A stretch of 64,000 nucleotides of DNA from Methanobacteriota archaeon (lineage in GTDB: Archaea > Thermoplasmatota > E2 > DHVEG-1). The number at the start of each line of letters is the position of its first letter. Within the stretch, counting starts at the first letter, position 1. Positions 7,072-55,050 of this stretch are shown piece after piece. The translations under genes were made by a program, and so were the position numbers. The stretch is from NCBI GenBank assembly GCA_903877165.1, contig CAIRCU010000024.1:4688-68687 (forward strand). Direction: 5' to 3'. The notes under the pieces were generated by a model. That model saw only the letters and a program-made list of their open reading frames with translations. It ran no database searches and was not told where the DNA came from.

Positions 7072-7236
7072 AACACCACGGATTGGCATCCTTCAGGAGT
7101 AGACGATGAACAAGTATCCGAAACTCATGGGATTCGGAGTAGCGATATTGCTTGTCACGTTCTTGATGACGTTTTTAATAACGTCGATTCGCAGAGGTGA
7201 ACAATCTTTAAGTAAAATGAACGGGTTCACTACATA

Positions 7237-7971: not shown

Positions 7972-8194
7972 TCTTCATCTACCCGTGATTTTCATTAGGC
8001 GTACAAACCCGATAGATAAGCCAGATTTTTATCCTGTTATAAAGGGGGGGGATAGGTGGAATCTATTTAAACGGGGGATGCGTTGAGTTCATGGGTGCAG
8101 TGTTATTCCGAGGCGTTCTTCTCTGAAGTCCTTTGCGGATAAGAAGTTCGATGAATTCGAGCGGTACGCACTTGAGAGCACGACAGGCCGTCGG

Positions 8195-9675: not shown

Positions 9676-9838
9676 TCTGTTGTCCTCGGTCCGGGGTAAT
9701 GGAGTCAACCGTTATAAAACATTCCCCAAACCACCAAAGCCAACAGAGACAGTGCCAATAATATATAATAGAAAATATTATATAGAAAGATAGGAATATG
9801 TTTTTAAGCAAAAAATTTCATCTCTTGTGGCGATAAAA

Positions 9839-14068: not shown

Positions 14069-15403
14069 CTAATTCATGGTCGGGATATCATAGGGTTTTT
14101 TTGCTGGATGCCAGTCGCAATACACACCAGGAATGTAAATCAGAATAGAATAATACCAAAATGGGATGGCAAAGATGACTGTACGACCCCATAATACCTT
14201 AGGTCCAACCCTTATCCAATCATCATAGTAGTTCTTATCGAAAACTGGGTTTTTTATTGTTTGACGTCGGATGGGAAGGACTTGCACAAAAGTAATAGGT
14301 CGTGAATTATCAATAAAATTGTTGCACGTTATTTTTTCCGTTCCTTTCACCATTTCTGTGTCCAAGCCAACATGGTTATTTCTGAACTCATTGTTGAAAA
14401 TGACATTCGATTTTCCAGGGGAGCGAATCACTATTCCATAACTACAGTTTCTGATTTTATTGCAGGTGATATTGACAAATGATACATTTTCAGAATAGAT
14501 GCCAGAGGAATCATTCTCGAAGATGTTATTAATAACCGTCGAATACGAGCAACCCCAAATAACCAGCCCCCCATCCCCGACACCGTTGTGAATAAAGTTA
14601 CCGTCGATACGAATATGACTTCCCGAGACTTCCATTCCTACTGAATCGGTATTGAAGATTTCATTTCCTGTGACGGTGATATTTTTACATCGAACGATAT
14701 ATATTCCACTTCTTGTGCTCAGATGATTATTGGAAATCACCCAGTCACGCGGTTCCTCCCAAAGGTTGATGTTACACGCATTGTGTGAGATGTTGTTACG
14801 AAGTATGGTGTCGTTTCGGCAGTATCCTCGTCCCCATATCCCACCTTGCATTTTGGAAATAGTGTTTTCAGCGATATAATTATGCGAAGCGTCTTTGAGG
14901 AAGACACCGTACCAATTATTCAAAATGGTATTCCCTACGATATTGTTATAGTCTCCACCAAGAATATCAATTCCGTTGACCGTGTTGTTTGAAATGGTAT
15001 TGCCACTGGACAGAAGTCCTATCCCAGAATAATTCCAAATATTGTGAGAATTTTGGATTGTAAAACCAGTCATGTTTATTTTGTTTGCATTGACCGTGAG
15101 TACATACCTATCCATTTTTCCAATGATAATCGTAGTATCTCTATTTTCACCAATCAAATTGAGTGTTTTATCGATGACTACATTTTCATGATAGGTGCCT
15201 TGGAAAACAAAGATAGTTTCTCCATCACTTGCATTATCAATTGCAGCCTGAATAGTGCTATAGTTCCCTGGTCCTGAACCACCGACATAAAGAGTTTTTC
15301 CATCAGATAAAGGAATGAGGTTGCTCTTGTCAGACTGTGCCAATATTGGAATGCTTGAACCAAAAAACAGCAGGATGACCCCAACTACAAGCAACTTATT
15401 CAT
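14069..15403 (-). CDS. Secreted right-handed parallel beta-helix repeat protein (NosD/PbH1-like), AT-rich gene
   Basis: ATG at 15403 (the track start 15421 is TTG). Signal peptide MNKLLVVGVILLFFGSSIPILA. 'LYVGGSGPGNYSTIQAAIDNASDGETIFVFQGTY' and repeated N-x-I-x-x-N coils. Paralogous to 51196..53253 and 37664..39712. Hydrophobic C-terminal segment. Confidence 0.75.
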   Translation of the reverse strand: MNKLLVVGVILLFFGSSIPILAQSDKSNLIPLSDGKTLYVGGSGPGNYSTIQAAIDNASDGETIFVFQGTYHENVVIDKTLNLIGENRDTTIIIGKMDRYVLTVNANKINMTGFTIQNSHNIWNYSGIGLLSSGNTISNNTVNGIDILGGDYNNIVGNTILNNWYGVFLKDASHNYIAENTISKMQGGIWGRGYCRNDTILRNNISHNACNINLWEEPRDWVISNNHLSTRSGIYIVRCKNITVTGNEIFNTDSVGMEVSGSHIRIDGNFIHNGVGDGGLVIWGCSYSTVINNIFENDSSGIYSENVSFVNITCNKIRNCSYGIVIRSPGKSNVIFNNEFRNNHVGLDTEMVKGTEKITCNNFIDNSRPITFVQVLPIRRQTIKNPVFDKNYYDDWIRVGPKVLWGRTVIFAIPFWYYSILIYIPGVYCDWHPAKKPYDIPTMN

Positions 15404-15549
15404 GGGACTCCCCCCTAACAAGTAATGTTTAAAGAGCCTTTTAAGCCTATTCCTGACCTATATAAGGCGAAGTGAAACCTTCTCTCCATTTCGATAGGTA
15501 AAACGGTTATATTTTTAGCTAGCAAGGGGAGGAGTCGGAACCCCTTCGA

Positions 15550-32228: not shown

Positions 32229-32622
32229 GCTCCGGGATGAACTTCATCGATAAAGAATTTACGCAATGCCGCGTGTTCTTCTCCGTGTACCGCTCGCCGG
32301 AAAAGACGTGTCCGAGGTGCGCGCCACAATTTGCGCACAGGATCTCGACGCGCTCACCGTCCCGGTCCGACTGCCGCTTCACAGCACCCGGTATCTCCTC
32401 ATCGAAGCTCGGCCACCCGCAGTTGCTGTGGAACTTCGCGGTCGACTTATACAATGGCGCGCCGCACCGCTTACAAACGTAGGTCCCCGATTCGAAGAAC
32501 TCTGTGTACTCCCCGCTGAACGGCGCTTCCGTACCCTTGCCGACGATGATCCGCTTCTCCTCCGGCGTCAAAGGATTATTCTCATGAACCTTCTTCGCGT
32601 CACCCTTCATGCGTCCCACCAT
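32212..32622 (-). CDS. msrB: Peptide methionine sulfoxide reductase MsrB
   Basis: Zn-binding CxxC pairs plus CGWPSF and RHCVNS. Possibly leaderless; alternative ATG at 32610. Confidence 0.9.
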   Translation of the reverse strand: MVGRMKGDAKKVHENNPLTPEEKRIIVGKGTEAPFSGEYTEFFESGTYVCKRCGAPLYKSTAKFHSNCGWPSFDEEIPGAVKRQSDRDGERVEILCANCGAHLGHVFSGERYTEKNTRHCVNSLSMKFIPEHGHDA

Positions 32623-32637
32623 CCGAAGAACATCAAA

Positions 32638-32650
32638 CTATATAATAAAA
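32638..32650. promoter_or_regulatory. TATA-like element (CTATATAATAAAA) in the divergent msrB / methyltransferase intergenic region
   Basis: AT-rich box about 15-25 nt upstream of the msrB ATG (minus strand) and upstream of the MTase gene (plus strand). Confidence 0.3.
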
Positions 32651-32796
32651 TCACCACAGCACACCTCCATAATCAGACATCACCATCGACCCTATTATAC
32701 ACCGAGACGATACCGAGATACACGAAGAAACCCCCTCAGAACCGAGCCAGGATTAAGGGCACCGTCACCACCCTGCAGCCCAACGCCATCTACCTC

Positions 32797-33582
32797 ATGG
32801 ACTGCATAGCCGGCATGCGCGCCATGGCCAGACAGAAGATGCACGCGGACGTCATCGTCACCTCACCGCCGTACAACATCGGCAAGCCGTACCACACCCA
32901 CAACGACAACCTCCCACCAAGCGAGTACCTCGACTGGATGGAGCAGGTCGCTGCCACCTGCCGCACCGTCATGACCGACCAGGGCTCCTTCTTCCTCAAC
33001 ATCGGCAGCAAACCCACAGACCAGTGGACTCCGCTGGAGCTTGCGCTGCGCTGCAAACCCTATTTTACCCTGCAGAACGTCATCCATTGGGTCAAATCTA
33101 TCGCGATCCCCAAAGCAGACGTCGGTCAGTATCCCCACATGCAGCAGGACATCGCGGTCGGTCACTACCAGCCGGTGAACAGCACGAAGTTCCTCAGCTC
33201 CTGCCACGAGTACATCTTCCACTTCACTAAAACCGGGGACGTCCCATTGTACAAACACGCAGTCGGCGTCCCATACCAAGACAAAAGCAACATCGGTCGA
33301 TGGAAAACCGCGACGTCGGACCTGCGCGAACGGGGCAACACCTGGTTCATCCCCTACGAGACCATCCAGTCCGCCCGACCGCACCCGACAGTATTCCCCG
33401 ACAAACTGCCGGAGATGTGCCTGCGGCTCCACGGACTCTCCCGCATCTCCCTCGTCCTCGACCCGTTCATGGGCAGCGGGTCGACCGCCGTCGCCTGCAA
33501 ACGCCTACGACTCAAGTACATCGGCTTCGATATCGACCCAGTGTACATCGCCGAGGCTCACCGTCGGCTCCAAAGACCCTAG
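32797..33582 (+). CDS. DNA methyltransferase, beta-class N4-C/N6-A (SPPY motif); start uncertain
   Basis: DVIVTSPPY (motif IV) and FLDPFMGSGSTAVAC (motif I). No in-frame ATG/GTG/TTG between the intergenic TATA box and 32797. The track ORF extends into msrB with an ATG at 32584. Confidence 0.75.
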   Translation: MDCIAGMRAMARQKMHADVIVTSPPYNIGKPYHTHNDNLPPSEYLDWMEQVAATCRTVMTDQGSFFLNIGSKPTDQWTPLELALRCKPYFTLQNVIHWVKSIAIPKADVGQYPHMQQDIAVGHYQPVNSTKFLSSCHEYIFHFTKTGDVPLYKHAVGVPYQDKSNIGRWKTATSDLRERGNTWFIPYETIQSARPHPTVFPDKLPEMCLRLHGLSRISLVLDPFMGSGSTAVACKRLRLKYIGFDIDPVYIAEAHRRLQRP

Positions 33583-35221: not shown

Positions 35222-35476
35222 ATGCTAGGTCGTATGGCAACAGGATTCGCTTTACTGAGCATCAGCCCCTTGCATGAGAAAGCGGTGTACGAGCAACTCA
35301 CCAGGATACCGGAGGTCGTCGAGGTGCATCCCCTCTTCGGGGAGTACGATATCCTCGTCAAGATTCAAGCCAGTGATATCGACACCATCGGCAACATCGT
35401 AATCAACAAGATCCGGTCGACTAAGGGCGTCGTGGACACAAAGACGTTGATAGGGACGAAAAGCCTGGAAGGATAA
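35222..35476 (+). CDS. Stand-alone Lrp/AsnC ligand-binding (RAM) domain protein
   Basis: 84 aa. …EVVEVHPLFGEYDILVKIQA…TKGVVDTKT… matches the RAM domain fold. Confidence 0.6.
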   Translation: MLGRMATGFALLSISPLHEKAVYEQLTRIPEVVEVHPLFGEYDILVKIQASDIDTIGNIVINKIRSTKGVVDTKTLIGTKSLEG

Positions 35477-35633: not shown

Positions 35634-37028
35634 ATGCGGAGTAAAGAATACAAGTATAGAACAGCATCATTAATGCATATCGGCAGTACTCTTTTTTTTA
35701 CGGCAGTACTCATGATTTCATCTCTTACGTATTCAATTGGGACTTCTGCGTCTGGAACTCGAAATGATCCACCTAACAAACCAAATACTCCAGACCCGGC
35801 GAATGCATCAACGAACGTCTCCATCACTGCACAGCTCAGCTGGATCGGTGGTGATCCAGACCCCGAGGATGTGGTAACGTACGATGTGTATTTCGATACG
35901 GTGTCTCCGCCCGCTCTCATGGTGAATAATCAGTCTGCAACCTCATACGATCCCGGCCTCATGGAGTACCTAACGACGTATTATTGGCAGGTTGTTGCTT
36001 GGGATGGCCAGGGCAATTCTACAGCAGGCGAAGTATGGGAATTTACTACGGTGCCAAATCATCCGCCAAATATGCCAGCCAACCCAGATCCAGCAAATGA
36101 GTCAACAGACGTCTCCATACAGACGAATCTTTCATGGATTGGAGGCGACCCCGATAATGATTCGGTGATCTATGATGTTTATTTTGGGGATACGACCACA
36201 CCTCCGCAAATCGCAAGCAACCTCACCGATACGACCTGTGCGCTTCCAACACTCGCCTACAGCACGACGTACTATTGGCGAATCATCGCCACAGATAATC
36301 ATTCCGCGAACACAACTGGGCCACTATGGATGTTTACTACCGAAATCAGAACCGGGATTTGGATCACCATAACGAAACCGGTGAACAACTCGTTCTATTT
36401 CCAGGATCAGCGACATAACCTCTCTGGCAGGACGATAATATACGGTTCGATAAATATCACAGCCGATGCATCCGCAGACGCAGGAATCGCAAGGGTCGAA
36501 TTTTATATCGATGGGAAACTCAAAGGGAACGATACCACGGCACCATATAGCTGTATTTGGAAACCGCTTCTCCAGTTCAACGGTCTTTCCCTGAGGCATA
36601 CAATCAAGGTGGTCGCTATTGACACGAAAGGGAAGAACGCCTCCGCTGAGATCAACGTCACCAAATGGAGGTTCCACGTGCTTCCCTGGCTCGTCATCGG
36701 AGCCGTTGCGCTTTCATCCATGGTGCCGCATACCAAGATGAAGGGATTTGTCTTTAACCTCCGGGCTAAAGGCACGGGGTATACCTTTTTTGTCCTGCGC
36801 ATGTCCTACCATACCGTCGGCCCGTTAAAGAACGAACGGGGAATCATCAAGATGAAACGCTGCGTCGCCAGCATCCTCGTCGGACCAATGATGATCTTGA
36901 AGCTCGGGCCGGGCCACATGTTCTCCTATGTCTCCATCACATTCCTTGGGGGCGTCCAACTTGCGACACACTCCCTAGGAAACCTATTCGACCGTTCTCC
37001 ACAGCCCCTCCGTAAGAACGGTCGATAA
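35634..37028 (+). CDS. Secreted/anchored protein with two tandem FN3-like repeats, an Ig-like domain and a C-terminal TM segment
   Basis: GGAGGA RBS. N-terminal signal/TM. Two ~99-aa repeats (…PDPANxSTxVSI…LSWIGGDPD…YDVYF…TYYW…). 'VEFYIDGKLKGNDTTAPYSCIWKP' Ig-like domain. Many N-x-S/T sequons. Confidence 0.7.
   Translation: MRSKEYKYRTASLMHIGSTLFFTAVLMISSLTYSIGTSASGTRNDPPNKPNTPDPANASTNVSITAQLSWIGGDPDPEDVVTYDVYFDTVSPPALMVNNQSATSYDPGLMEYLTTYYWQVVAWDGQGNSTAGEVWEFTTVPNHPPNMPANPDPANESTDVSIQTNLSWIGGDPDNDSVIYDVYFGDTTTPPQIASNLTDTTCALPTLAYSTTYYWRIIATDNHSANTTGPLWMFTTEIRTGIWITITKPVNNSFYFQDQRHNLSGRTIIYGSINITADASADAGIARVEFYIDGKLKGNDTTAPYSCIWKPLLQFNGLSLRHTIKVVAIDTKGKNASAEINVTKWRFHVLPWLVIGAVALSSMVPHTKMKGFVFNLRAKGTGYTFFVLRMSYHTVGPLKNERGIIKMKRCVASILVGPMMILKLGPGHMFSYVSITFLGGVQLATHSLGNLFDRSPQPLRKNGR
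35763..36353 (+). repeat. Two tandem ~297-nt intragenic repeats encoding FN3-like modules
   Basis: Protein repeats beginning NDPPNKPNTPDPANAST… and NHPPNMPANPDPANEST…. Confidence 0.6.
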
Positions 37029-37663
37029 AATCACAATGAAAGGCTCCGCGTTGCTCCCCAGAGTTCGCAGCCAGATGACCGACAGCGGCTCAATCCAAGG
37101 ATAGAATTCACAGGGTATTTCGTGGACGCATGCTTCCAATGCTCATCGAGTATTGAACATTACGCACACGTTGTCCCTCCTGCAGCCGTCTTCTTACCAA
37201 CAGATTCTGGAGCGAATGCGAACACCACAGGTCCACTGGACTGACTGACCACGACCGATCCTCATCCTACTACCAAGACCAACAAGGACATCGCCATGTG
37301 ACCCTCATCGACATCCCACGGTATGAGAACCGACAAGATCAAAAGGCTTGCTGAAAAAACAAGACGCAACAAGGTAACAGAAACGAAGCCCTATCTCATC
37401 GTTTATTCTGCTCGTGTGTAAGGCTACGGAAGCGCACTCCGAGGAGGAAGACCTCGGCGATGAAGCGCAGTTCACGATGTTCCTCATCATTGGACACGGT
37501 GCCGACGACGATCATTCTAGACATCTCCTTGCTGCCGTTTGCTAGCAAGTAGCAATAAATATATTAAACTCGTAAATATAAATAAGTTCCGGTGAAACCA
37601 CCCTAAAAACCAACCAAAAAAACAATTATATAAAAACCGCTATATACACCCATACGTGAAACC

Positions 37664-39712
37664 ATGGCCTCCAGACCTATCGTGATCATCGCCATCGCCC
37701 TCCTCCTCATCCTTCCCATCATCCCTCCGCACGCAAGCGCACACGCGCCCACCGCAGTCCTTTACGTCGACGACGATAACACCCAAGGACCCTGGGACGG
37801 CACCCCAGACCATCCCTACCAGCACATCACAGACGCTGTCGCCAACGCCACCGACAACGACACCATCTACATCGAAAACGGCACGTACCACGAACAAATC
37901 ACCCTCACCAAACCCCTCACCATCCAAGGCCAAGAAAAAAACACCACACTCGTCACCGCGGACGGCAAAGGCAGCATCCTGACCATTGGAGCAGACCATG
38001 TCTGCGTCACTGACCTCACCTTCCTCAACTCCGCAGGCAGACCAGACACCGCGGCCGTCGACATCCACGCGGACCACACCATCATCTCCCGCTGCATCAT
38101 CTACCGGCACCGACTCGGCATCGCCATCACCGGCCATACCGACCTCACCGTTACCGACTGCATGATCCACGTCACCCAACAAGGCATCCATATCGTGAAC
38201 AGCAGTCGCATCACCATCACCGACACGTACCTCTACCACAACGCCATCAGCATCCTCCTCAAAGGATCCTCAGCCGCCACCATCAACGCATGTTTCATGC
38301 ATACCAATGGCGTCGGCTGCTACGCCCAACACGACACCGCCCTCACTATCACCCACTGCGCATTCTGCGACAACAACGACAACCAAGGCGGCGTCTTCCT
38401 CCGGAACACTACATCCACAACCATCACCGACTCCTACTTCAAGAACAACGGCGTCGGCGTCGGCATCAAAAGTAGCAACGACACCACTATCGCCCACAGC
38501 ACGTTTATCAAAAACACGCACTTCGCCGTGAAACTCTGGAACGCCACAGCCACCACTCTACAAAATAACAGCTTCGACAGTAACCTCCGCAACGCAGTCT
38601 ACGCGGAATACAGCACCCTCACTTACACCCGCAACCTGCTGCACAACGACACCAATTACGGACTCTACGCAGCACATACCACCGCGAACGCCACCCGCAA
38701 CTGGTGGGGATCAGCGCTCGGGCCAGCCCGCACCAGCTACTCCACACGCGCCGACCGAGGCTCACGAGGACAAGGAACACTGCAGTACTACCCCTGGCTC
38801 TTCACAGCACCAAACGACACCGGCATCACCTGGGACCCCTTAACTCAGTTCACCGCCCCGCAGCACCCGGACACCTGGAAACCCACTCTCACCCTGCCTG
38901 GCAGCGACACGGACGGCGACGGCGCCCCGGACTGGTGGGAGATCAAATGGGGATACGACCCGACCGTCCCCGATGACCATGCCCATCTCGACCCGGACGG
39001 CGACGGCCTCACCAACCTTCAGGAATGCTTCACCGACGCCATGGGCTCAAACCCCTTCCACAAAGACATCTTCCTCGAAATCGACTGGCTCACCTCACTC
39101 ACCCCCAACGTCACCAACCAGCCGCCACAAAAATACCTCGACCAGATGATCGCCCCCTACGCCCAGCACAACATCACCCTTCACGTCGACACCGGGAACT
39201 TCGGCGGCGGCGAGGAGCTCCCTAGCAAAGCGGACCTCACGTACGAGGACATCGGCAACGACTACTGGGATCACTTCCTGAACGACGATCTAAACAACCC
39301 TAGAAAGGGCGTGTTCCACTACGGACTGCTGTGCGACGACAGCGAAGGCGGCGGCTTCGTGGTCATCGGCTGGGACGACCTCGACAGCTTCACCATTGCC
39401 TGCCAGCGGCTCCAGGAGAAATACACGCACTTCGCCAGAGGGCGGCTCTCGGTCGGCGGCTCCATGCACGAGCTAGGGCATCTGGAAGGACTCATCGCTG
39501 CCCGTTTCGGCGGTATCGACAACATGGCCGCAACCCACCTCCAGGAGAAAGGCTTCTGGGAGTACCGCCACTACCACAGCTGTCTGAACTACTGTTACAC
39601 GTATTTCCTGATGAACTACTCCGACGGGTCCCACGGGACCAACGACTTTAACGACTGGGCGCACCTCAACTTCACGTTCTTCAAGGCAACGGAGTTCGCG
39701 CTCCCCTCTTAA
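37664..39712 (+). CDS. Secreted chimeric protein: parallel beta-helix (NosD-like) + Ca-binding D-x-D-G-D repeats + C-terminal HExxH zinc-metallopeptidase-like domain
   Basis: Signal peptide MASRPIVIIAIALLLILPI. 'LYVDDDNTQGPWDGTPDHPYQHITDAVANATDNDTIYIENGTY' and beta-helix coils. 'DTDGDGAPDWWE…DPDGDGLTNLQE'. 'GGSMHELGHLEGL'. More than 25 N-x-S/T sequons. Confidence 0.7.
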   Translation: MASRPIVIIAIALLLILPIIPPHASAHAPTAVLYVDDDNTQGPWDGTPDHPYQHITDAVANATDNDTIYIENGTYHEQITLTKPLTIQGQEKNTTLVTADGKGSILTIGADHVCVTDLTFLNSAGRPDTAAVDIHADHTIISRCIIYRHRLGIAITGHTDLTVTDCMIHVTQQGIHIVNSSRITITDTYLYHNAISILLKGSSAATINACFMHTNGVGCYAQHDTALTITHCAFCDNNDNQGGVFLRNTTSTTITDSYFKNNGVGVGIKSSNDTTIAHSTFIKNTHFAVKLWNATATTLQNNSFDSNLRNAVYAEYSTLTYTRNLLHNDTNYGLYAAHTTANATRNWWGSALGPARTSYSTRADRGSRGQGTLQYYPWLFTAPNDTGITWDPLTQFTAPQHPDTWKPTLTLPGSDTDGDGAPDWWEIKWGYDPTVPDDHAHLDPDGDGLTNLQECFTDAMGSNPFHKDIFLEIDWLTSLTPNVTNQPPQKYLDQMIAPYAQHNITLHVDTGNFGGGEELPSKADLTYEDIGNDYWDHFLNDDLNNPRKGVFHYGLLCDDSEGGGFVVIGWDDLDSFTIACQRLQEKYTHFARGRLSVGGSMHELGHLEGLIAARFGGIDNMAATHLQEKGFWEYRHYHSCLNYCYTYFLMNYSDGSHGTNDFNDWAHLNFTFFKATEFALPS

Positions 39713-40818
39713 TCCTCGCGCCATTTCGTCAACAGGACGCCTGCAACAAAGAAGATCACAGCGAAGACCAAGACGATCGCCGCATTGGTGATCGCAAGGG
39801 ACTGGTTCATGTAGATCATGGAGTTGCGCAACGCCTCGTTCACGTAATACAATGGGAGCACCTGGGCGATCGTTTGCAAAAACGACGGCATCTGTGCTAG
39901 CGGGAAGAACGTACCGGCCAGGAACATCATCGGGAAGCTGATAGCCCCCGCCGCCATATCCGCAGTCTCCTCTTCTTTAACGAACCGGCCGATGATCATG
40001 CCGATGCCGGAGAACAGGAAGCTTGAGGAGACAATCGTCAGGATCATCAACGGCGTGATGTTCACCTTGACGCCCCATACCAGGACGCCGACAGCCAACG
40101 CGATCGTCGTCGTCAGGAACGACAGGAACAGCATGAACGTCATCTTCGCCAGGATCCACTCAGAACGAGTGATAGGCGTCGTGAGCAGCTTGCGCAGAAT
40201 CCCGTCCTTACGGTACTTCGTATTCCGTTCGATGCTGCCGTAGATCGCCTGCTGCATGATTGTGAACCCGATCATCCCCGGGATGAAGAAATCGATGTAG
40301 TTGAACTTCTCCGTAATCGTACTCTGGGTCGACAGTCCGACGATATTACGCCCATTCGACAAGCCCATGTTCATGGTCTGAATGATGTTGGAAATCACGC
40401 TGCGGATAATCTCCGTGGATGAGGTCTCCGTTGGATCGTAATAGAACGTCAAATTCACTTTCGAGTTGGGATCAACGAATGATTGATTGATATGCTGGGC
40501 GTACCCATTCGGGATCACAAGGAAGGCTTTGATGTCATGGTCTTTAATGTACTTCGTCACATTCTCCGATTCGTTGACCATGGTGATCTTCAGCACCCCG
40601 GTCTTGTTCATGATGTCCATGAGTTGCGACGACATCGCGGAATGGTCATGGTCCTGCACGTATACCGAGAAATTAGTGCTGCCGGTGCCGGAGAAAATCG
40701 CACCGAAAATCAAGATCAGCATAATAGGGAATAACAGCGACCAGAACACGGTACCGCGGCTGCGCCACCAGCTCTTGATGCTGAAGAGCACATCCATGCC
40801 GATGATGCGCGGGTTCAT
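39709..40818 (-). CDS. ABC-2 family exporter permease
   Basis: 369 aa. N-terminal TM, extracytoplasmic loop, C-terminal TM bundle. ATGA overlap with the ATPase gene. Confidence 0.8.
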   Translation of the reverse strand: MNPRIIGMDVLFSIKSWWRSRGTVFWSLLFPIMLILIFGAIFSGTGSTNFSVYVQDHDHSAMSSQLMDIMNKTGVLKITMVNESENVTKYIKDHDIKAFLVIPNGYAQHINQSFVDPNSKVNLTFYYDPTETSSTEIIRSVISNIIQTMNMGLSNGRNIVGLSTQSTITEKFNYIDFFIPGMIGFTIMQQAIYGSIERNTKYRKDGILRKLLTTPITRSEWILAKMTFMLFLSFLTTTIALAVGVLVWGVKVNITPLMILTIVSSSFLFSGIGMIIGRFVKEEETADMAAGAISFPMMFLAGTFFPLAQMPSFLQTIAQVLPLYYVNEALRNSMIYMNQSLAITNAAIVLVFAVIFFVAGVLLTKWRED

Positions 40819-41873
40819 GCTTCAGCCTCCTGGAGTTTCGACCCCGTCAGTTCAAGGAAGACTTCCTCGAGGTTCGACCGGCGGATCTCGATGCTTTCGT
40901 AATCGATCGCCTCATGACGCAGTGTGGACAGGACGTCAAGGACACGATCCTTATAGGTGATGGTGACAGCTATGGTGCCGTTCCCCTCGGAGCGCGCGTC
41001 GTATCCCTCATCTTTGAGAATCACCAGTGCTTCTGATGAGGTGCAGCCTTGGATGTGCAGTACGCTGCCGCGCCCGTACGTGGTAATGAGATCATCAAGC
41101 GACCCCTCCGCGATGATGCGTCCTTTGTAGATGATGGCGATGTGGTCGGCGAGGAACTCGGCCTCTTCCATGTAATGCGTCGTGAGGAACACGGTCTTGC
41201 CTTGCTGTCGAAGGTTCGCGACCACCTGCCAGACCTCCCGGCGCGCCTTCGGGTCCAGCCCTGTGGTCGGCTCATCCAGGAACACGATGTCCGGCTCGTT
41301 GACCAAGGACAAGGCGACACCGACCCGCTGCTTCAAACCGCCGGAAAGATTCCGGTACAGCATCTTCTCATACGACTGCAGATTCAGGGCAGTGATGATC
41401 CCATCAATATCCGCTTGCTTCTTGTACAGTTTGGAGAAATACTCGAGGGTCTCCCGGACGGTGAGGCGTTCGAAGGAATGGAACTCCTGCGGCAGGATGC
41501 TGATTTGTTCTTTGATTTTATCGAAGCTGGTCTTCGTATCCTCACCGAGGAGCTTGACGGTGCCCGCGGTCGGCTCACGGATCGACTCGATCATCTCGAC
41601 TGTGGTCGTTTTCCCTGCGCCGTTTGGCCCAAGGAACGCGAAGATCTCCCCTTTCTTGACGTTAAAGGAGATGTCGTTGACGGCGACGAGATTCCCGTAC
41701 ACCTTCTTTAGATGCGAGACCTCAATCGCATAGGACGCGGTGTCCTCAGCTGGGAACACTATCTTGCCTTGGTGCAGGCAGGAGGGACAGGTGACGATGA
41801 CCTGTTCCCCGGCGGACCCGGAGAAGGAAGCGATTTCCCGGCATGAAGGGCATTGAAAACGCTTAGTGACCAT
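40815..41873 (-). CDS. ABC transporter ATP-binding protein with an N-terminal C4 zinc-ribbon extension
   Basis: MVTKRFQCPSCREIASF…VIVTCPSCLHQGKIVFP, then Walker A GPNGAGKTT, LSGGLKQRVGVALSL and Walker B FLDEPTTGLD. Confidence 0.9.
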   Translation of the reverse strand: MVTKRFQCPSCREIASFSGSAGEQVIVTCPSCLHQGKIVFPAEDTASYAIEVSHLKKVYGNLVAVNDISFNVKKGEIFAFLGPNGAGKTTTVEMIESIREPTAGTVKLLGEDTKTSFDKIKEQISILPQEFHSFERLTVRETLEYFSKLYKKQADIDGIITALNLQSYEKMLYRNLSGGLKQRVGVALSLVNEPDIVFLDEPTTGLDPKARREVWQVVANLRQQGKTVFLTTHYMEEAEFLADHIAIIYKGRIIAEGSLDDLITTYGRGSVLHIQGCTSSEALVILKDEGYDARSEGNGTIAVTITYKDRVLDVLSTLRHEAIDYESIEIRRSNLEEVFLELTGSKLQEAEA

Positions 41874-47403: not shown

Positions 47404-48765
47404 ATGGTTGAACTGAAAATTCAGTGTCCCACCTGTAAACATCAGATACTTGTTCGCGGGAAGCCTTCAGAAAAAATCATTATTACCTGCCCACAATGCA
47501 ATACACGCGGTGAATTCACTTTTCCTCTTGATGCTTCCACAGCTCCCGTCCAAAACGAACCGGACACACAGAGACCATTAGGAGTAACCATATTAGCAAT
47601 ACTGGCGATTTTTTATGCATCGACGAATATTTTCAAACTACTATTTTCTGCATCTCTACTGAACTTAGCAAGCCCTTTGAATTCTTTAAATCTGATTCCA
47701 CCCCTTCTACTGCTGCTTGATATTGTAGTGAGTGCAGTGTTCTTCGTTATCGCATACGCATTCTGGAAAGGATTGCAATGGTCTTGGTTTGTCGCAATTA
47801 TTCTCCTCGTTATCGAAATTGTACTCCAGATCAGTGTTCCTTTATCACTTGCTATTTTTTTAAAGACCCCTTTCTCAGGCTTTTTTTATTACCTCCTAAT
47901 AATATACGCCGTTGTTTTCGTAGTGATATTTAGTCTGATTTTATTTTATCTCACAAGACCCCATGTGAAAACGTACTTTCATGTTGGTCATCGCGGTGAT
48001 TTCAAATCAATCATCAGAGCGAAGAGAAAAATCGTGTATGGTCTTGTGATCATCCTCATCATGACAAGTATAATTGTAGTGTTAGGTTTTCAATCAACAG
48101 GTACTATTTCTTTGAAAAGTGTTCAGACGCAAGAAAATCCTCGGGAACCTGGTGACATGACCATTACCGCAGAACTCACTGGGGGTTCACCCTTTGGGAG
48201 AGTCAACGCGTCTCTCTTCTATGCAACATATTTTGGCGAGGGCAGTGAAAGCGGTTCTGAAACCATGCAACCTATGGGGATGAATAGATATTCAGCGATA
48301 CTCCACGGATCAAATGGATCGGAGATCTGGTGCGTAATAGAATCAGGAAATATTGTGTTAGGGGAACGTACTTTTCAGGAGGGGCACGTCGAGAGAAGCA
48401 GCAGAACCTCTCTCGCAATTACCAATATCACACAAACCCCGGAGACACCAACAACACAGACAATGTCCATCACCATCACAGTACATGTCACAAGCAATGC
48501 GACAATCACTGACGTCATGTTCATAAAAGAATTCATCGCTCCTTCCGGCTATAACGGCAGCAGCGATTCAGACATGCAGAAAATAAACAATGACACCTAT
48601 TCTGAGACCATCTATGCGTCTGGCGCTGAAGGATTCGATACAGGTTTCTCAGGTGAAAATCCGCAGGGAACTTTTGTCTCCGGCACGACAATATATTACC
48701 GAATTGCTGCTAAAGATGCATCAGGGAATACCGCGGTACAAACCAAACACATCACCATAAAATAA
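47404..48765 (+). CDS. AT-rich gene: N-terminal C4 zinc ribbon + 4-5 TM + large C-terminal extracytoplasmic domain, hypothetical
   Basis: MVELKIQCPTCKHQILV…IIITCPQCNTRGEFTFP, then hydrophobic helices. C-terminal Thr/Ser-rich beta-rich region with sequons. Confidence 0.55.
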   Translation: MVELKIQCPTCKHQILVRGKPSEKIIITCPQCNTRGEFTFPLDASTAPVQNEPDTQRPLGVTILAILAIFYASTNIFKLLFSASLLNLASPLNSLNLIPPLLLLLDIVVSAVFFVIAYAFWKGLQWSWFVAIILLVIEIVLQISVPLSLAIFLKTPFSGFFYYLLIIYAVVFVVIFSLILFYLTRPHVKTYFHVGHRGDFKSIIRAKRKIVYGLVIILIMTSIIVVLGFQSTGTISLKSVQTQENPREPGDMTITAELTGGSPFGRVNASLFYATYFGEGSESGSETMQPMGMNRYSAILHGSNGSEIWCVIESGNIVLGERTFQEGHVERSSRTSLAITNITQTPETPTTQTMSITITVHVTSNATITDVMFIKEFIAPSGYNGSSDSDMQKINNDTYSETIYASGAEGFDTGFSGENPQGTFVSGTTIYYRIAAKDASGNTAVQTKHITIK

Positions 48766-48930: not shown

Positions 48931-50733
48931 ATGAAAAACTATATAGCCGACGCCCTCCATATTCCACTGGGGGATTCCATGAAGACCAGTAGAGCCTCGC
49001 GCGTGCTCGTCTGTTACGTCCTATTACTCTTGATCGCAACCAGTCTGTATGCCAACATCGGGGCGCAAAGCCCACTTGGGGGCGGCAAACCCGCGGGCCC
49101 CTTCCCCAGCGGCATGCTCTTGTTTGCTCCAGTCTCAGGGTCAACCACGTATCTCATGGATAGCAACGGCACGATTAATCACACCTGGCCCTGCACGTAC
49201 ACGCCGCAGCTCGCCCCGTACTGGATAGGGAACGGCTCCATCGTCTATCCAATCAATAATGGCGGCGGCCTGGAAAAAATCGCATGGAACGGAACCGTGA
49301 CTTGGGTATACCAATTCAACCGACCGGGAAGCTACTGTCACCACGATATCGTACCGCTCCCCAACGGCGACGTCCTGATGATCGTCCAGGAAGTGAAGAC
49401 ACACGCTGAGGCAGTCGCCGCGGGACGCAACCCCGCGACCGTCGGCGACACGTTCCTCCCAGACTACCTCATCGAAGTCAAACCAACGGGACCGACGAGC
49501 GGGACGATCGTCTGGGAATGGCACCAATGGGATCATCTCATCCAGGACTATGACTCCTCGAAGCAGAACTACGGTGTCGTCGGAGACCACCCCGAGTTAA
49601 TCGACATCAATTTCGGCGAATACTTCACCGGCGATTGGATCCATACGAATTCCGTGGACTACAACCCCGCGTTTGACCAAATCCTGATCAGCGCCCATGA
49701 CTTCGACGAAGTCTGGATCATCGACCACAGCACCACCACCCAAGAGGCAGCGGGCCACACCGGTGGCCGGTACGGCCATGGTGGCGACCTTTTGTACCGC
49801 TGGGGGAACCCGAAGGCCTACCGCCGCGGGGATGCAAGTGATGAGAAAATGTACTTCGAGCACCAGTGCACGTGGATCAAACCCGGGCTTCCCGGTGCTG
49901 GCGACATCCTTATCTACGACAACGGCAACAACCGTCCCGGAGGCCCCTATTCGACGGTGGATGAGTTTACACCAACGGTGTCCGCGGATGGTTACTATTA
50001 CATCAACCCGGGTGAAGCATACGGTCCTGATAATTTCACATGGAGCTATGTCGCCACTCCCCCGCAGAGCATGTACTCGAGCATCTACAGCGGCGCGCAA
50101 CGCCTCCTGGACGGGAACACGATGATCTGCGTCGGGGTCCCTGGGCAGTTCATCGAAGTCTCACCAGACGATCAGGTCGTATGGCAGTATACGAACCCGT
50201 TCCCTGACTCCGGCGATAACTCCGTATTCAAAGTCGAGTATATCCCCCCGACACCGCCAGAAAAACCGAATCTCGATGCCATTGGTAGACTGGTATGGAC
50301 GGACGTCAAACCTGGGGCCGTCGTCAACGGGAGCTTTCAGGTGGTGAACATTGGGGATTCCAATTCCAGATTGAATTGGAAGGTAGACAAGATCTCTCTC
50401 GGTTGGGGGAACTGGACGATTGCGCCTGAGTCCGGCGTGAACCTCACTCCCGAGGAGGGGCCGGTGACGGTTCACGTGCAGGGATTCATTCCCGACAAAA
50501 CGAATAAAGCGTTCCAAGGAAGCCTTCTGGTTTTGAACCAGGACAACACATCGGATAACGATACGGTCCCGGTGATCATACAGACCTCCTTGAGTACACC
50601 GTTTTCACCTGCGCATCCCTTCTTTGATCTTCTGAGGTATTGGCTTTCTTATATGAAGAATTATGTGTGGAGGCATGAGTACGGATCGCTTCCTTGTTTC
50701 CACACGAGAGTGGCCGGTGGGACGATTGGTTAG
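48931..50733 (+). CDS. Secreted beta-propeller protein, arylsulfotransferase (ASST; PF05935/PF14269)-like; GC-rich copy
   Basis: Signal peptide. Conserved core TIVWEWHQWDHLIQD…GDWIHTNSVDYNPAFDQILISAH…WIIDHSTTT. Paralog of 53320..55050. Confidence 0.55.
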   Translation: MKNYIADALHIPLGDSMKTSRASRVLVCYVLLLLIATSLYANIGAQSPLGGGKPAGPFPSGMLLFAPVSGSTTYLMDSNGTINHTWPCTYTPQLAPYWIGNGSIVYPINNGGGLEKIAWNGTVTWVYQFNRPGSYCHHDIVPLPNGDVLMIVQEVKTHAEAVAAGRNPATVGDTFLPDYLIEVKPTGPTSGTIVWEWHQWDHLIQDYDSSKQNYGVVGDHPELIDINFGEYFTGDWIHTNSVDYNPAFDQILISAHDFDEVWIIDHSTTTQEAAGHTGGRYGHGGDLLYRWGNPKAYRRGDASDEKMYFEHQCTWIKPGLPGAGDILIYDNGNNRPGGPYSTVDEFTPTVSADGYYYINPGEAYGPDNFTWSYVATPPQSMYSSIYSGAQRLLDGNTMICVGVPGQFIEVSPDDQVVWQYTNPFPDSGDNSVFKVEYIPPTPPEKPNLDAIGRLVWTDVKPGAVVNGSFQVVNIGDSNSRLNWKVDKISLGWGNWTIAPESGVNLTPEEGPVTVHVQGFIPDKTNKAFQGSLLVLNQDNTSDNDTVPVIIQTSLSTPFSPAHPFFDLLRYWLSYMKNYVWRHEYGSLPCFHTRVAGGTIG

Positions 50734-51195: not shown

Positions 51196-53253
51196 ATGGA
51201 TTCAGGTCTGCTGATGAGAAAGTGTTCTGCTGTCGGAATCATCCTCTTGTTCCTAGGAATGTGCGTCATTCCAGCAGCTGCACAGGACATTGAGAAATCA
51301 TCGTTTCCGGCATCACGAGGGAATTGGTTGTATGTCGGTGGTTCAGGCCCAGGGAACTATACGAAGATTCAGGATGCGATTGACAACGCAAGTGACGGGG
51401 ATACGGTGTACGTGTATAGCGGAACGTATGCTGGATCTGTCGTCATTACAAAATCAATTAACCTCATTGGTGAGGATAAGAATACAACGGTCATCAGTGG
51501 ATATTTTGCCTACACGGTGTACATACTGTCTGATTGGGTCAATTTGAGTGGGTTTACCATTTATACGAACGGGCGTCTCGGTGAGGGTATTCGAATAGAT
51601 TCATGCCACAACACCTTTGTAGGCAACATCATCGACGCCCCCCGTGATAGAATTCGGGTTGCTGGTGACAGCAACATCGTCTCCGGGAACACCATCAGAA
51701 ACTGCTATCTCTTTCTTGTTGGTGATGGCAACACTATCTCAGGAAACGTCATCTCAAACACCTATTATGGCATATACTTAACAGATTATGCTTCTAACAA
51801 CATTATTTCAAATAATTCTCTTTTCGACTCAGGTCTATTTATCGCCGATGCTGCTGTTTGGCATAACACCGTTACGAACAACACGGTGAATGGCAAACCG
51901 CTTGTCTATCTTGCTGATGAATCCGACTTGGTACTCGATGGTGATGCAGGGCAAATACTTCTTGTGAATTGCACCAATATCACTGTACAACACCAAGAAA
52001 TATCCAACACTACTGTCGGTATCCAACTTTGGGGATCCACTTCCTGCGTCATCTCCGGAAACACTATCGCTGGGAATCATTTTGGCATGTACCTCTGCGG
52101 TTCGAACAACACCATAATTGACAACACCATCACCCATAACTATAACGGCATCTTTCTTACAGGGGACAACAATACCATCTCTGGTAACACCTTCACAAAC
52201 AACGATGACGGCATATACCTCTCATATAGCGATCACAACGGCATCATCAATAACACTATCACAAACAACTATTATGGCATGCTGCTGAACGACGGTGGCG
52301 ATGTCAATACTCTTACTAATAACATCATAACAAACAACTATTACGGTATTTTTCTTTCAGCCAACAGCAACATCATCTCCGGTAACACTATCTCGAACAA
52401 CGATGACGGCATCTACCTGTCGTATAGCGATCGCAACACTATGATTAGGAACACCATTACAGACAACTCTTATGGCATACTGCTGAATTATAGTAGCGAT
52501 TTCAGTAGTATTATCAATAACACTCTTTCAAACAACAGCCATGCTGTCATAGGTCTTTCTGGCAACAGGAACACTATGATCTCTGGTAACACCATCTCGA
52601 ACAACGGCGATGGGGTATACCTCTCGTTTAGCGATCACAACGGCATCTTCAATAACACCATCACAAACAACGACGACAATGGCGTGCGTCTGTTTGGCGA
52701 CAGCAACATCATCTCTGGCAACACCCTCACACACAACAATGGTAGTGGCATCTACATAGATGACAGCGATTACAACACCATTATCAGTAACACCATTTCA
52801 AACAACAGCGATGACGGCATACGTCTTTTCGGTGACGACAATGCGGTCTCTACCAACATCATCACAAATAACAGCAACGGCATATACGTCTTGAGCCACA
52901 AGAACAACACAATCTCAGGTAATACTATTGCTTGGAACAATTGGTCTGGTGTATACCTGAGTGGTTCCAGGGGCAATACCATTTCTGGGAACTGCATCTC
53001 AACAAATAGACAAGGCATCTTTTTCGTTTTATCAACCAACAATACCGTCCTTAAGAACAACTTTCTGGGAAACAAACGGCATGCTCTTTTTGAAAACTGC
53101 ACAAACCTTTGGAACAGGAATTATTGGGGTAGACCACGGATACTTCCCAAACTCGTTTTTGGTATAAGAATGGTACAGAATAAATGGCCGTTGCCACTAA
53201 TCGATATCGACCGGCATCCCTCATTTCTACCTTATAACATCCCCCAGGACTGA
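51196..53253 (+). CDS. Secreted parallel beta-helix repeat protein (NosD/PbH1-like) with ~22-aa coils; AT-rich gene
   Basis: Signal peptide. 'WLYVGGSGPGNYTKIQDAIDNASDGDTVYVYSGTY' N-terminal module is paralogous to 14069..15403. More than 20 'ISGNTI(S/T)NN…GIYL' coils. Confidence 0.75.
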   Translation: MDSGLLMRKCSAVGIILLFLGMCVIPAAAQDIEKSSFPASRGNWLYVGGSGPGNYTKIQDAIDNASDGDTVYVYSGTYAGSVVITKSINLIGEDKNTTVISGYFAYTVYILSDWVNLSGFTIYTNGRLGEGIRIDSCHNTFVGNIIDAPRDRIRVAGDSNIVSGNTIRNCYLFLVGDGNTISGNVISNTYYGIYLTDYASNNIISNNSLFDSGLFIADAAVWHNTVTNNTVNGKPLVYLADESDLVLDGDAGQILLVNCTNITVQHQEISNTTVGIQLWGSTSCVISGNTIAGNHFGMYLCGSNNTIIDNTITHNYNGIFLTGDNNTISGNTFTNNDDGIYLSYSDHNGIINNTITNNYYGMLLNDGGDVNTLTNNIITNNYYGIFLSANSNIISGNTISNNDDGIYLSYSDRNTMIRNTITDNSYGILLNYSSDFSSIINNTLSNNSHAVIGLSGNRNTMISGNTISNNGDGVYLSFSDHNGIFNNTITNNDDNGVRLFGDSNIISGNTLTHNNGSGIYIDDSDYNTIISNTISNNSDDGIRLFGDDNAVSTNIITNNSNGIYVLSHKNNTISGNTIAWNNWSGVYLSGSRGNTISGNCISTNRQGIFFVLSTNNTVLKNNFLGNKRHALFENCTNLWNRNYWGRPRILPKLVFGIRMVQNKWPLPLIDIDRHPSFLPYNIPQD
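52180..52671 (+). repeat. Three ~90-nt near-identical segments spaced ~200 nt apart inside the beta-helix gene
   Basis: 52180-52269, 52378-52467 and 52582-52671 each encode (I)SGNT(F/I)(T/S)NNDDGIYLSYSD(H/R)N…. Confidence 0.6.
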
Positions 53254-53319: not shown

Positions 53320-55050
53320 ATGGAGAAAGACGGAAAATGTCGGATCTTCGTTTTTTGTTTCATACTCGTACTTGTTGGACCTTGTCTGTCCTCGGTACTT
53401 GAAGCGAAGAACATGCCTCTCGATATGAAAACATCGGGAAGATTTCCAGATGGCCAGATTTTGTTTACTCCGTTTTATTCAACAACAACCTATTTAATCA
53501 ATGGCACGGGCGCGGTAAATCATACGTGGTCAAGTGCGTATGCACCCAGGTACGCTTCGTATTGGTTAGGGAACGGTACCATTCTCCTTCCAATCGATAC
53601 GGGCTCCGGTGGTTTCCAAGAAATTGCATGGAATGGAACGGTGATCTGGGACTACCGATTTTCTCGATCTGGATGCTGCTGCCATCATGATGTGAAGCCG
53701 TTACCAAATGGAAATGTGTTGATGATCGTTCAGGAAATAAAAACACCCGCTCAAGCGATTGCCGCGGGACGCGACCCAGCAACCATCGAGAACTCATTTT
53801 TCCCAGATTTCCTCATCGAAGTCCACCAAACAGGTCCGTCCAGTGGTACAATCGTCTGGGAATGGCACCAATGGGATCATCTCATCCAGGATTTCGATTC
53901 AACAAAAAACAACTATGGTGTCGTCGGAGATCACCCGGAATTAATTGACATCAATTTCGGTGAATATTTTTATGGAGACTGGATTCACACGAATTCAGTG
54001 GATTACAACCCAGCGTTTGACCAAATACTCATCAGCGCCCATAATTTCGACGAAGTCTGGATCATCGATCACAGCACAACCACTGAGGAGGCCGCTGGCC
54101 ACACCGGTGGGCACTATGGGCACGGCGGCGATCTGCTGTACCGCTGGGGAAACCCACAGGCCTACCAACGCGGAAACGCAAGTGATAAAAAATTGTTCTT
54201 CCAACACCAATGCATCTGGATAAAACCCAGGTATCCTGGTGAAGGAGACATACTTATTTTCGACAACGGCAACAACCGTCCTGGTGGACCCTATTCGACA
54301 GCCGATGAATTTACACCGCCAGTGGACTCCAACGGATCGTATTATCTCGAACCGGGTTCAGTATATGGTCCTGAGAACTATACTTGGAGTTATACGGCGG
54401 TTCCACCGGGGAGTCTGTATTCAGACATTTTCGGTGGTGTACAGCGCCTTCCGGACGGGGATACGCTAATTTGCGATGGAGTCCCCGGAAAATTTATTGA
54501 AGTGACGCCGGAGAAAACAGTCGTCTGGGAGTATGTCAATCCATATCCTTGGCCAACCATGAGTCCGGTGTTTAAAATTGAATACATCTGCCCTATGCCA
54601 CCTTTGCCACCGCCAAAGCCTGATTTATATTGCATAGGGCGTCTCGTATGGGTGGGCATTCAGCCAGGGGTAAACGTCACGGGGAGCTTTCAGGTGCAGA
54701 ACTTCGGAGATCCTGGCTCACGATTGAACTGGACGGTGAATTTGTCCTCCCTGATGTGGGGGAAATGGACGATTACTCCCTCGTCCGGCGTAGACCTCAC
54801 CCCCGAGGAGGGGCCCGTAAGCGTGCAGGTGAATGTGATTGCGCCTGGCGAGAAAAACGCGGAGTTCCATGGGGCCCTCATGGTACAGAACAAGGAGAAT
54901 GCGTCGGATTTCGGTACAATCCCAATAACTCTGACAACCCCGTTGATCAACTCTCTTCCACCAGCTCACCCCTTCATGAATATGGTGCGGCAGTGGCTTT
55001 CATTTTTGAAAGATGTGTTGAAAAGAGCCGTTGCTTTAGTGGAACATTGA
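53320..55050 (+). CDS. Secreted beta-propeller protein, ASST-like; AT-rich paralog
   Basis: Signal peptide MEKDGKCRIFVFCFILVLVGPCLSS. Core nearly identical to the 48931 gene over about 150 aa; termini divergent. Confidence 0.55.
   Translation: MEKDGKCRIFVFCFILVLVGPCLSSVLEAKNMPLDMKTSGRFPDGQILFTPFYSTTTYLINGTGAVNHTWSSAYAPRYASYWLGNGTILLPIDTGSGGFQEIAWNGTVIWDYRFSRSGCCCHHDVKPLPNGNVLMIVQEIKTPAQAIAAGRDPATIENSFFPDFLIEVHQTGPSSGTIVWEWHQWDHLIQDFDSTKNNYGVVGDHPELIDINFGEYFYGDWIHTNSVDYNPAFDQILISAHNFDEVWIIDHSTTTEEAAGHTGGHYGHGGDLLYRWGNPQAYQRGNASDKKLFFQHQCIWIKPRYPGEGDILIFDNGNNRPGGPYSTADEFTPPVDSNGSYYLEPGSVYGPENYTWSYTAVPPGSLYSDIFGGVQRLPDGDTLICDGVPGKFIEVTPEKTVVWEYVNPYPWPTMSPVFKIEYICPMPPLPPPKPDLYCIGRLVWVGIQPGVNVTGSFQVQNFGDPGSRLNWTVNLSSLMWGKWTITPSSGVDLTPEEGPVSVQVNVIAPGEKNAEFHGALMVQNKENASDFGTIPITLTTPLINSLPPAHPFMNMVRQWLSFLKDVLKRAVALVEH

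Follow-up and report, generated by a model that had tools for sequence, protein, structure and literature searches.

The subject of this analysis is a gene on the forward strand of a 64,000-nucleotide (nt) stretch of DNA from an uncultured Thermoplasmatota archaeon (the whole stretch is called the window below). Its product of 682 amino acids (aa) joins a predicted signal peptide, a beta-helix, calcium-binding repeats of the TSP3 type and a C-terminal domain that resembles the metzincin metallopeptidases. The open reading frame (ORF) is a real, conserved gene made of these four parts, and its motifs are not due to chance, because they are conserved across a large family. Judged from sequence comparisons and a structural model, the product is probably, though by no means certainly, an active, multidomain extracellular zinc metalloprotease, and it is likely to be N-glycosylated. 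The features of the gene are listed here; A2 denotes a 48-sequence alignment of the C-terminal domain alone.

37600..37663, forward strand: AT-rich upstream region with TATA-like boxes, ttatataaaa lying about 30 nt 5′ of the ATG (sequence reading)
37664..39712, forward strand: complete coding sequence, 682 aa, ATG start (signal peptide, beta-helix, TSP3 repeats, metzincin-like domain)
37664..37741, forward strand: predicted Sec signal peptide, residues 1-26, with an A-S-A cleavage motif (N-terminus MASRPIVIIAIALLLILPIIPPHASA/HAP, read from the sequence)
37790..38692, forward strand: predicted right-handed parallel beta-helix, residues ~43-343, holding 11 of the 16 N-x-S/T sequons (Pfam Beta_helix, NosD)
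38693..38899, forward strand: conserved cap/linker after the beta-helix, residues 344-412, with an NWWG...GP motif (aligns in homologs P0001-P0003 and P0006)
38900..39055, forward strand: two Asp-rich repeats of the TSP3 type, predicted to bind calcium, residues 413-464 (TSP3_bac below threshold; thrombospondin-3 region of MtsD)
39056..39709, forward strand: C-terminal metzincin-like domain, 217 aa, residues 465-682 (A2, profile matches in the PDB, AlphaFold2 model, Foldseek)
39467..39490, forward strand: HELGHLEG, predicted zinc-binding/catalytic helix motif with H602, E603, H606 and G609; HELGH itself is residues 602-606 at 39467-39481 (conservation in A2)
39509..39523, forward strand: GGIDN motif with D619, candidate third zinc ligand (G and D at least 90% conserved; motif alignment)
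39578..39592, forward strand: SCLNY, a Met-turn-like form of S-x-M-N-Y with Leu641; Y643 may act as a Tyr-switch ligand (invariant S; N and Y conserved to at least 90%)
39620..39658, forward strand: SDGSHG...DFNDW, conserved acidic loop near the C-terminus (S653, G655 and D664 invariant; D654, D661 and W665 at least 90% conserved)

The single 682-aa ORF of the original prediction stands: an identical product is a called gene in an assembly of the European Nucleotide Archive (ENA), with the same neighbors there. It is recorded on two contigs (10-20 kb and 50-200 kb), the one read being that of ENA. AT-rich composition spans the 100 nt upstream of the gene, and a gap of 635 nt to the preceding forward-strand gene makes it probable that the segment 37600..37663 is the gene's own archaeal promoter. 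An Rfam scan of the window returned three tRNAs only, none of them close to the gene.

The original prediction had seen a zincin-like HExxH motif in the C-terminal region and could assign it to no named peptidase family. This was borne out for residues 465-682, which have no Pfam or NCBIfam match (no Pfam match even at E ≤ 1) and which, searched alone against the PDB with phmmer, gave nothing significant (best E 0.19, to an unrelated protein). The profile built from A2 matched only metallopeptidases of the metzincin or zincin kind in the PDB. Snake-venom adamalysins were best (E 7e-4), ADAMs, MMPs, myroilysin, ADAMTS-5, archaemetzincin and BMP-1 were weaker, and nearly all of the 58 PDB matches listed were metzincins. 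Below the Pfam thresholds, where metzincin-clan models led, family members matched Reprolysin_3 (19 of 48), Reprolysin_5 (17 of 48), Peptidase_M10 (13 of 48) and Astacin (three A2 members, with BMP-1/tolloid among the weak PDB matches). The window protein did not reach the gathering threshold of any of the M12B models PF01421, PF13574, PF13582, PF13583 and PF13688, and all A2 members were likewise sub-threshold; only two peripheral relatives pass reprolysin thresholds, namely P0237, which has three TSP3 repeats (Reprolysin_4), and P0242 (Reprolysin_5 and Reprolysin_3). A canonical HELGHNLGLRHGG...SVMNY is present in peripheral relatives such as P0242, P0241, P0239 and P0233.

Structure prediction, which had been proposed as a check, points the same way. 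An AlphaFold2 (AF2) model of the domain computed with A2 reached pLDDT 95.8 and pTM 0.93 (an earlier model from a 14-sequence alignment, pLDDT 56.7, was discarded). Its predicted elements run beta-alpha-beta-alpha-beta-beta-beta-alpha-alpha, with strands at 3-12, 40-45, 87-93, 100-104 and 109-115 and helices at 25-36 and 63-74 in domain numbering; the last element is the HExxH helix at 128-143, with HELGHLEG at its end. This is the order of the metzincin upper subdomain, a five-stranded sheet with helices, and the lower subdomain is mostly irregular and confidently predicted. Foldseek comparison of the model with the PDB gave metzincins as 18 of the top 19 matches (probability 0.75-1.00), among them ADAM-8, six snake-venom proteinases, ulilysin, archaemetzincin, PAPP-A, fragilysin and mirolysin; the leading matches (ADAM-8, the snake-venom metalloproteinases and ulilysin) had probabilities of 0.99-1.00. 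Since the profile matches, the sub-threshold and peripheral Pfam matches and the predicted fold agree, the domain, on sequence and model, belongs to the metzincin clan as a divergent branch closest to the reprolysin-like families, one for which there is no curated model. The original prediction was to be given up if profiles placed the region in a non-peptidase family and homologs did not keep the HExxH; the matches found are to metallopeptidases, and 172 of 206 relatives have the HExxH.

Four members gave a hint of DUF7948, which reached threshold only in P0063 (27.5 vs. 27 bits; residues 363-419), where the match spans 57 residues and falls in the first half of the metzincin-like domain. P0063 is a metagenomic relative of about 530 aa with a C2 domain at its N-terminus. 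This match is uninformative for the window protein; DUF7948 may describe a related family, with a model that overlaps the domain in part.

Metzincins are defined by an HEXXHXXG helix, a third His or Asp ligand and a Met-turn (Bode et al., 1993, as cited in PMC3427221). The helix motif is present in the window protein as HELGHLEG at residues 602-609. Within A2, H602, G605, S639, S653, G655 and D664 are invariant, and conservation is at least 90% for E603, H606, G617, D619, Y637, N642 and Y643, for D654, G658, D661 and W665 in the C-terminal part, and for D468, E472 and D474 on strand 1; the window copy keeps every one of these residues. Among 206 relatives that have the motif, the first His is followed by Glu in 172, by His in 28 and by Gln in six. 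The third ligand is another matter. The extended zinc motif of the window copy, HELGHLEGLIAARFGGIDN, departs from the reprolysin pattern HEXXHXXGXXHD, and a look for the third ligand that the original prediction had recommended found neither His nor Asp at the canonical position; the conserved Asp lies further on. Two other positions were considered and set aside: +11, where the closest clade has the Asp of V/A-D-D, is not conserved family-wide, and the His before GG (as in DDHGG), with which the canonical third His of GLRHGG aligns by motif, alternates among H, F and Y in the family (F615 in the window copy), as a packing residue might. D619, the Asp of G-x-D-N, is the one acidic position past the helix that the whole family conserves, and for these reasons it is preferred as the likely third zinc ligand, with Y643 as a possible fifth.

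For the third element of the definition, the Met-turn, the candidate in the family is S-x-M-N-Y, which is strongly conserved and lies some 35 residues past the second His. The corresponding motifs are SIMHY in astacin and SVMSY in serralysin, and the family turn has the same S-x-M-x-Y form as those turns with their zinc-binding Tyr. Unlike astacins and serralysins, the family lacks HEXXHXXGFXHE and HEXXHXXGXXHP and the window copy has Leu for the Met; there is no membership at the level of sequence. Acidic positions that the family conserves on strand 1 and towards the C-terminus recall the structural Ca2+ site of adamalysin, and the SDGSHG...DFNDW loop is probably a structural metal (Ca2+) site.

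The closest known group is that of the adamalysin/reprolysin metzincins (MEROPS M12B). The family shares with them the HELGHxxG helix after the same beta/alpha N-terminal subdomain, and they supply its best profile match and its leading Foldseek matches. In contrast to M12B, the window protein has no counterpart of the third His in HEXXHXXGXXHD, zinc motif and Met-turn lie about 15 residues further apart in the family, the conserved G-x-D-N being among the additional ones, and the turn is S-x-M-N-Y, lying 35 residues past H606 in the window protein, whereas the C-I-M turn of M12B follows after about 20. The window protein is moreover archaeal, with TSP3 repeats ahead of the domain and a beta-helix in the same chain, it has no Pfam match in the domain, and its structural similarity is limited (TM 0.40-0.46). 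Also close are unannotated prokaryotic proteins with TSP3 repeats and a reprolysin-like domain, for example P0237, P0238, WP_254761618.1 of Natrinema marinum and KXB05874.1 of an MSBL1 archaeon, the last named "Peptidase M10 metallopeptidase domain-containing protein" in UniRef. They have TSP3 directly upstream, HELGHxLGL, FGGID(S/N), SVMNY and (F)DDW, and one profile detects them all along with the window protein; unlike it, they are shorter, have no beta-helix and have a shorter loop from GxD to the Met-turn. P0242, P0241, P0239 and P0233 differ from the window protein in keeping the canonical third His of GLRHGG.

The N-terminus looks like a Sec-type signal peptide, as had been predicted, and 46 of 52 full-length relatives have a hydrophobic N-terminus. 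The 16 N-x-S/T sequons compare with 7.0 ± 2.4 in composition shuffles, only 1 in 1000 of which reached that number, and thus the predicted density of sequons held up; per 100 aa, the protein has 2.35, resembling other secreted window proteins (about 3.4) and differing from cytoplasmic ones (0-0.6). The hydrophobic N-terminus and the excess of sequons are the reasons for reading the protein as probably extracellular and N-glycosylated. Residues ~43-343 match Pfam Beta_helix (84 bits, 8.8e-24) and NosD (63 bits, 4.1e-17) above threshold, while NCBIfam TIGR04247 (NosD_copper_fam) scored 83 bits against a cutoff of 300, so that by its profile scores this beta-helix is generic NosD-type and not NosD. 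The paralogy claimed for two other beta-helix proteins of the window proved distant (14069-15421 on the reverse strand, E 5e-11; 51196-53253 on the forward strand, E 2.5e-10). The two predicted calcium-binding repeats are DTDGDGAPDWWE at 415-426 and DPDGDGLTNLQE at 443-454. Pfam TSP3_bac (PF18884), whose motif is D-x-D-x-D-G-x-x-D-x-x-E, detects one stretch at 17.8 bits vs. a cutoff of 25, both copies being legible by eye; scores in relatives reach 103 bits, and in NCBIfam the thrombospondin-type-3 part of MtsD matches residues 415-467.

Homologs of the domain are numerous. A word-indexed search gave 12 full-domain relatives, all unnamed, and underestimated the size of the family. An exhaustive profile search covering 1.84 billion cluster representatives found the whole domain in at least 85 of the best 150 matches, the remainder being giant TSP3-repeat proteins that match the linker only. 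Species-representative genomes of GTDB scanned with alignment A1 contained 171 confirmed loci, the best 80 of them all in Thermoplasmatota genome bins, and two or three copies of the domain per genome were common. The named database entries, all of them "hypothetical protein," belong to Thermoplasmatales/Thermoplasmatota bins, to Natrinema marinum, to an MSBL1 archaeon and to Mycolicibacterium malmesburyense. No account of the architecture came up in literature searches. Beta-helix, TSP3 and C-terminal domain occur in one uninterrupted protein of about 670-710 aa in more than 50 Thermoplasmatota genomes, and "chimeric," as the original prediction put it, is therefore not the right word. In the relative L001 the gene is split into two called ORFs. 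Of 148 relatives, 147 have a TSP3-like D-x-D-x-D motif no more than 90 aa ahead of the domain, which makes TSP3 plus metzincin-like domain the conserved core module; the domain is C-terminal in 166 of 189. The N-terminal partner differs by lineage: a NosD-type beta-helix in the clades around the window protein, elsewhere C2, a Vgb-lyase-type propeller or none that is recognizable. One relative has PKD domains placed after the metzincin-like domain.

Within this family there is a sister clade without the Glu, with motifs HHxGH, HQxGH or HQLGS, in which the other conserved residues are kept and most members are not adjacent to the ABC pair described below (loci L018, L019, L021, L024-L026, L028, L031, L034, L037, L042, L047, L049, L052, L054, L056, L057, L061 and L066, with the domain at ~6001-6790 in most). 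By sequence, its members are candidate zinc-binding pseudo-proteases. Tandem gene duplicates occur upstream of the ABC pair in L041 (4726-6810) taken with L044 (6903-8942), two genomes with the same gene order, and in L038 (5038-6798 and ~6982-8900). The HHxxH copy of L041 occupies the position directly upstream of the HExxH copy in the collinear L044, which suggests that the clade arose by local duplication.

The gene is followed by two genes of an ABC-2 exporter on the opposite strand.

39709..40818, reverse strand: ABC-2 permease, convergent neighbor (Pfam ABC2_membrane_3, 7.5e-42)
40815..41873, reverse strand: ABC ATPase, neighbor, with an N-terminal CPSC...CPSC zinc ribbon (ABC_tran 7.5e-32; DrrA-like 256 bits, below cutoff)

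As had been noted, the stop codons of the forward gene and of the permease, both TAA, share 4 nt (TTAA at 39709-39712). The zinc ribbon ascribed to the ATPase is also upheld, though Pfam Zn_ribbon_8 gives only E 0.09: the protein starts CPSC-x18-CPSC, and CxxC...CxxC is present in 25 of 25 orthologs. The stop overlap is kept across genomes diverged to ~55-70% protein identity, leaving no intergenic space for terminators (L001, L003, L009, L011, L013, L020, L022, L029, L032, L040, L044, L048, L051, L053, L055 and L062). Related loci form a block in which an asnC-like RAM-domain gene and the beta-helix/metzincin gene are followed by the convergent ABC-2 permease and ATPase, His_Phos_1 and an M32 carboxypeptidase. 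Adjacency was counted in the 78 loci with evaluable downstream sequence. The ABC pair adjoins 31 of them, always convergently (28 of HExxH type and three of HHxxH type), so that the neighbor asked about in the original prediction does recur in homologs and yet is not kept in general. The counts divide as follows.

Beta-helix-fused loci: ABC pair adjacent in 28 (27 HExxH, 1 HHxxH), not adjacent in 28 (10 HExxH, 18 HH/HQ)
Other loci (no beta-helix detected, or 5′-truncated): ABC pair adjacent in 3, not adjacent in 19

In L050 and L023 the upstream asnC-like gene is kept and the ABC pair is not adjacent; L050 also has His_Phos_1 and M32 downstream. The convergent orientation, the near-restriction to HExxH copies and the co-conservation of unrelated flanking genes lead us to read the pair as a conserved neighbor by inherited gene order, not as an operon partner or functionally coupled unit.

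Two further genes touch this neighborhood. A 464-aa secreted protein with Big_7 and fn3-like domains and 3.45 sequons per 100 aa is encoded at 35634-37028 on the forward strand, between the asnC-like gene (35222-35476) and the 682-aa gene; since the asnC-like gene is directly upstream in most related genomes, this gene looks like an insertion in the window. A 453-aa protein with no Pfam match (47404-48765, forward strand) starts with a module, MVELKIQCPTCKHQILVRGKPSEKIIITCPQCNTRGEFTFP, that closely resembles the ribbon of the ATPase, and a blastp-short comparison found no link between that module and the ribbon.

How such a protein would work can be sketched. Sec would export it, with cleavage of the signal peptide after A26, and N-glycosylation would fall on the beta-helix. 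Ca2+ would stiffen the TSP3 linker and the acidic C-terminal loop. One zinc would be held by H602 and H606 of the active-site helix, by D619 of GGIDN and possibly by Y643 of S-x-[M/L]-N-Y, with E603 acting as the general base that activates water for cleavage of the peptide bond. The beta-helix may bring the enzyme to a surface or to a substrate that is a polymer, and the flanking ABC-2 exporter, a neighbor through inherited gene order, would stand outside the mechanism. A broader proposal, which we hold tentatively and consider well short of probable, is that the TSP3-linked domain constitutes a metzincin family of its own, in which the third ligand has moved (two His, an Asp about 13 residues past the second His, and the Tyr of SxMNY). 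It would be massively expanded in sediment Thermoplasmatota as secreted enzymes and would include the HHxxH clade as a zinc-binding, non-catalytic sister that arose by duplication.

Several observations weigh against an active protease. The Glu is replaced by His or Gln in 34 of 206 relatives, which form a monophyletic HHxxH/HQxxH clade of beta-helix-fused paralogs, and some family members would then do without catalysis. The window copy itself lacks the canonical third ligand, having Ala at +10 from H602 (HELGHLEGLIA), carries Leu641 where most relatives have the Met of the Met-turn, and reads A-A-R where the closest clade has V/A-D-D. The AF2 model has no long C-terminal helix, its likeness to solved metzincins is moderate (TM 0.34-0.46, the upper part of that range for the best matches), and the best Foldseek E value is 1.3e-3, with none at or below 1e-3. 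The main alternative, that the domain is a metal-stabilized, non-catalytic binding module on a surface or adhesin-type protein and that the window copy is inactive in spite of its HELGH, draws on the same substitutions: the clade with HHxxH, HQxxH or HQxxS shares the architecture, and the window copy, on a long basal branch of the family tree, has no His, Asp or Glu at +9 to +12. Yet that last feature is found in 67 other relatives (68 of 206 in all), every one of which keeps HExxH and most of which have G-x-D/E further on. Leu at the Met position likewise recurs in several relatives with HExxH, and the ulilysin mutants M290L and M290C, whose structures are among the Foldseek matches, folded and were crystallized; Met-turn mutants of the ulilysin type keep activity with reduced stability. 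The window copy also retains H602, E603, G605, H606, D619, S639, N642, Y643, SDG, D661, D664 and W665. We thus regard an inactive window copy as unlikely, without dismissing it. Given the noncanonical active site (no third-ligand His or Asp, Leu641), the catalytic competence of this copy is presumed rather than established.

The remaining alternatives concern the other parts of the locus. A NosD-type beta-helix adjoining an ABC-2 permease and ATPase recalls NosDFY (TIGR04247), in which NosD is a periplasmic or extracellular right-handed beta-helix, and the window beta-helix, itself above the Pfam NosD threshold, could be imagined to dock on the extracellular face of the permease/ATPase, with the exporter supplying metal, a cofactor or a substrate. 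The adjacency, often with the 4-nt overlap, at 31 loci of considerable divergence and the ribbon present in every ATPase ortholog speak for such an assembly. However, the genes are convergent and so are not co-transcribed; the whole block from the asnC-like gene to M32 is syntenic, and vertical inheritance therefore explains the adjacency. The pair is missing beside 28 beta-helix-fused paralogs and 19 other relatives, and L050 and L023 keep the asnC-like gene without the pair next to their copy. The beta-helix falls far short of the NosD model, and the window protein, unlike NosD, carries an additional TSP3 and metzincin module. The permease is of the ABC2_membrane_3 type, has a large first extracellular loop and matches DrrB, SagH and RbbA types, the NosY-type ABC2_membrane_2 being only at threshold, and no nos genes turned up among the window ORFs examined. 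Docking of this kind failed every membership test run, and we consider it very improbable. Marginally less probable again is a catalytic beta-helix (a polysaccharide lyase, hydrolase or esterase) with the C-terminal domain as an accessory or maturation part. It draws on weak matches to pectinesterase PemA, Pel9A-like and DUF1565 families, but these lie far below cutoffs and reflect generic repeats only, and the unit conserved across lineages is TSP3 plus metzincin-like domain, with an interchangeable N-terminal partner. That the ORF is an artefact of mis-joining or a frameshift is refuted by the identical product on two contigs and by the same uninterrupted architecture in more than 50 genomes. 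An active extracellular metalloprotease accordingly remains the explanation that we favor.

Other genes of the window include further candidates for extracellular function. A 978-aa protein at 9827-12763 (forward strand) matches Peptidase_C25 (gingipain-like, E 1.3e-11) and is a candidate extracellular protease; with the M32 carboxypeptidase that the window also encodes, it was counted as context for the protease reading. Two arylsulfotransferase (ASST)-like proteins (48931-50733 and 53320-55050, forward strand) flank the beta-helix paralog at 51196-53253 on the same strand, a 685-aa all-beta-helix protein (Beta_helix 304 bits), and each of the three starts with a signal-peptide-like stretch and is rich in sequons. 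A 438-aa ORF at 32266-33582 (forward strand) resembles a DNA methyltransferase in its C-terminal half (N4/N6-methylase-like motifs), and its N-terminal ~150 aa are of low complexity and may be non-coding.

The kind of protein described here, a metzincin protease with calcium-binding repeats and a binding domain, is already known; there is no new kind of system, and nothing ties the 682-aa protein mechanistically to the ABC exporter. The novelty lies in the subfamily, which is large, unannotated and mostly archaeal: its third-ligand region is non-canonical, TSP3 repeats form a fixed prelude to the domain, and it has a sister clade without the Glu. Standard annotation calls these proteins "beta-helix/NosD" or "hypothetical protein" only, and peptidase surveys of Thermoplasmatota that depend on MEROPS or Pfam would therefore miss the family despite its 171 GTDB loci. 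Extracellular peptidases are a noted trait of one sedimentary Thermoplasmatota order, Thermoprofundales (PMC9585477). The findings may interest protease specialists and those who catalog extracellular peptidases in sediment archaea. The drifting third ligand and the Glu-to-His clade offer a natural test case for the plasticity of the metzincin zinc site and for the origin of pseudo-enzymes. If the proteins are active, a metalloprotease class would be added to the extracellular protein-degrading repertoire of sedimentary archaea, and if the proposal of a family with a relocated ligand is true, these unannotated proteins would be an overlooked share of the means by which benthic archaea break down protein outside the cell.

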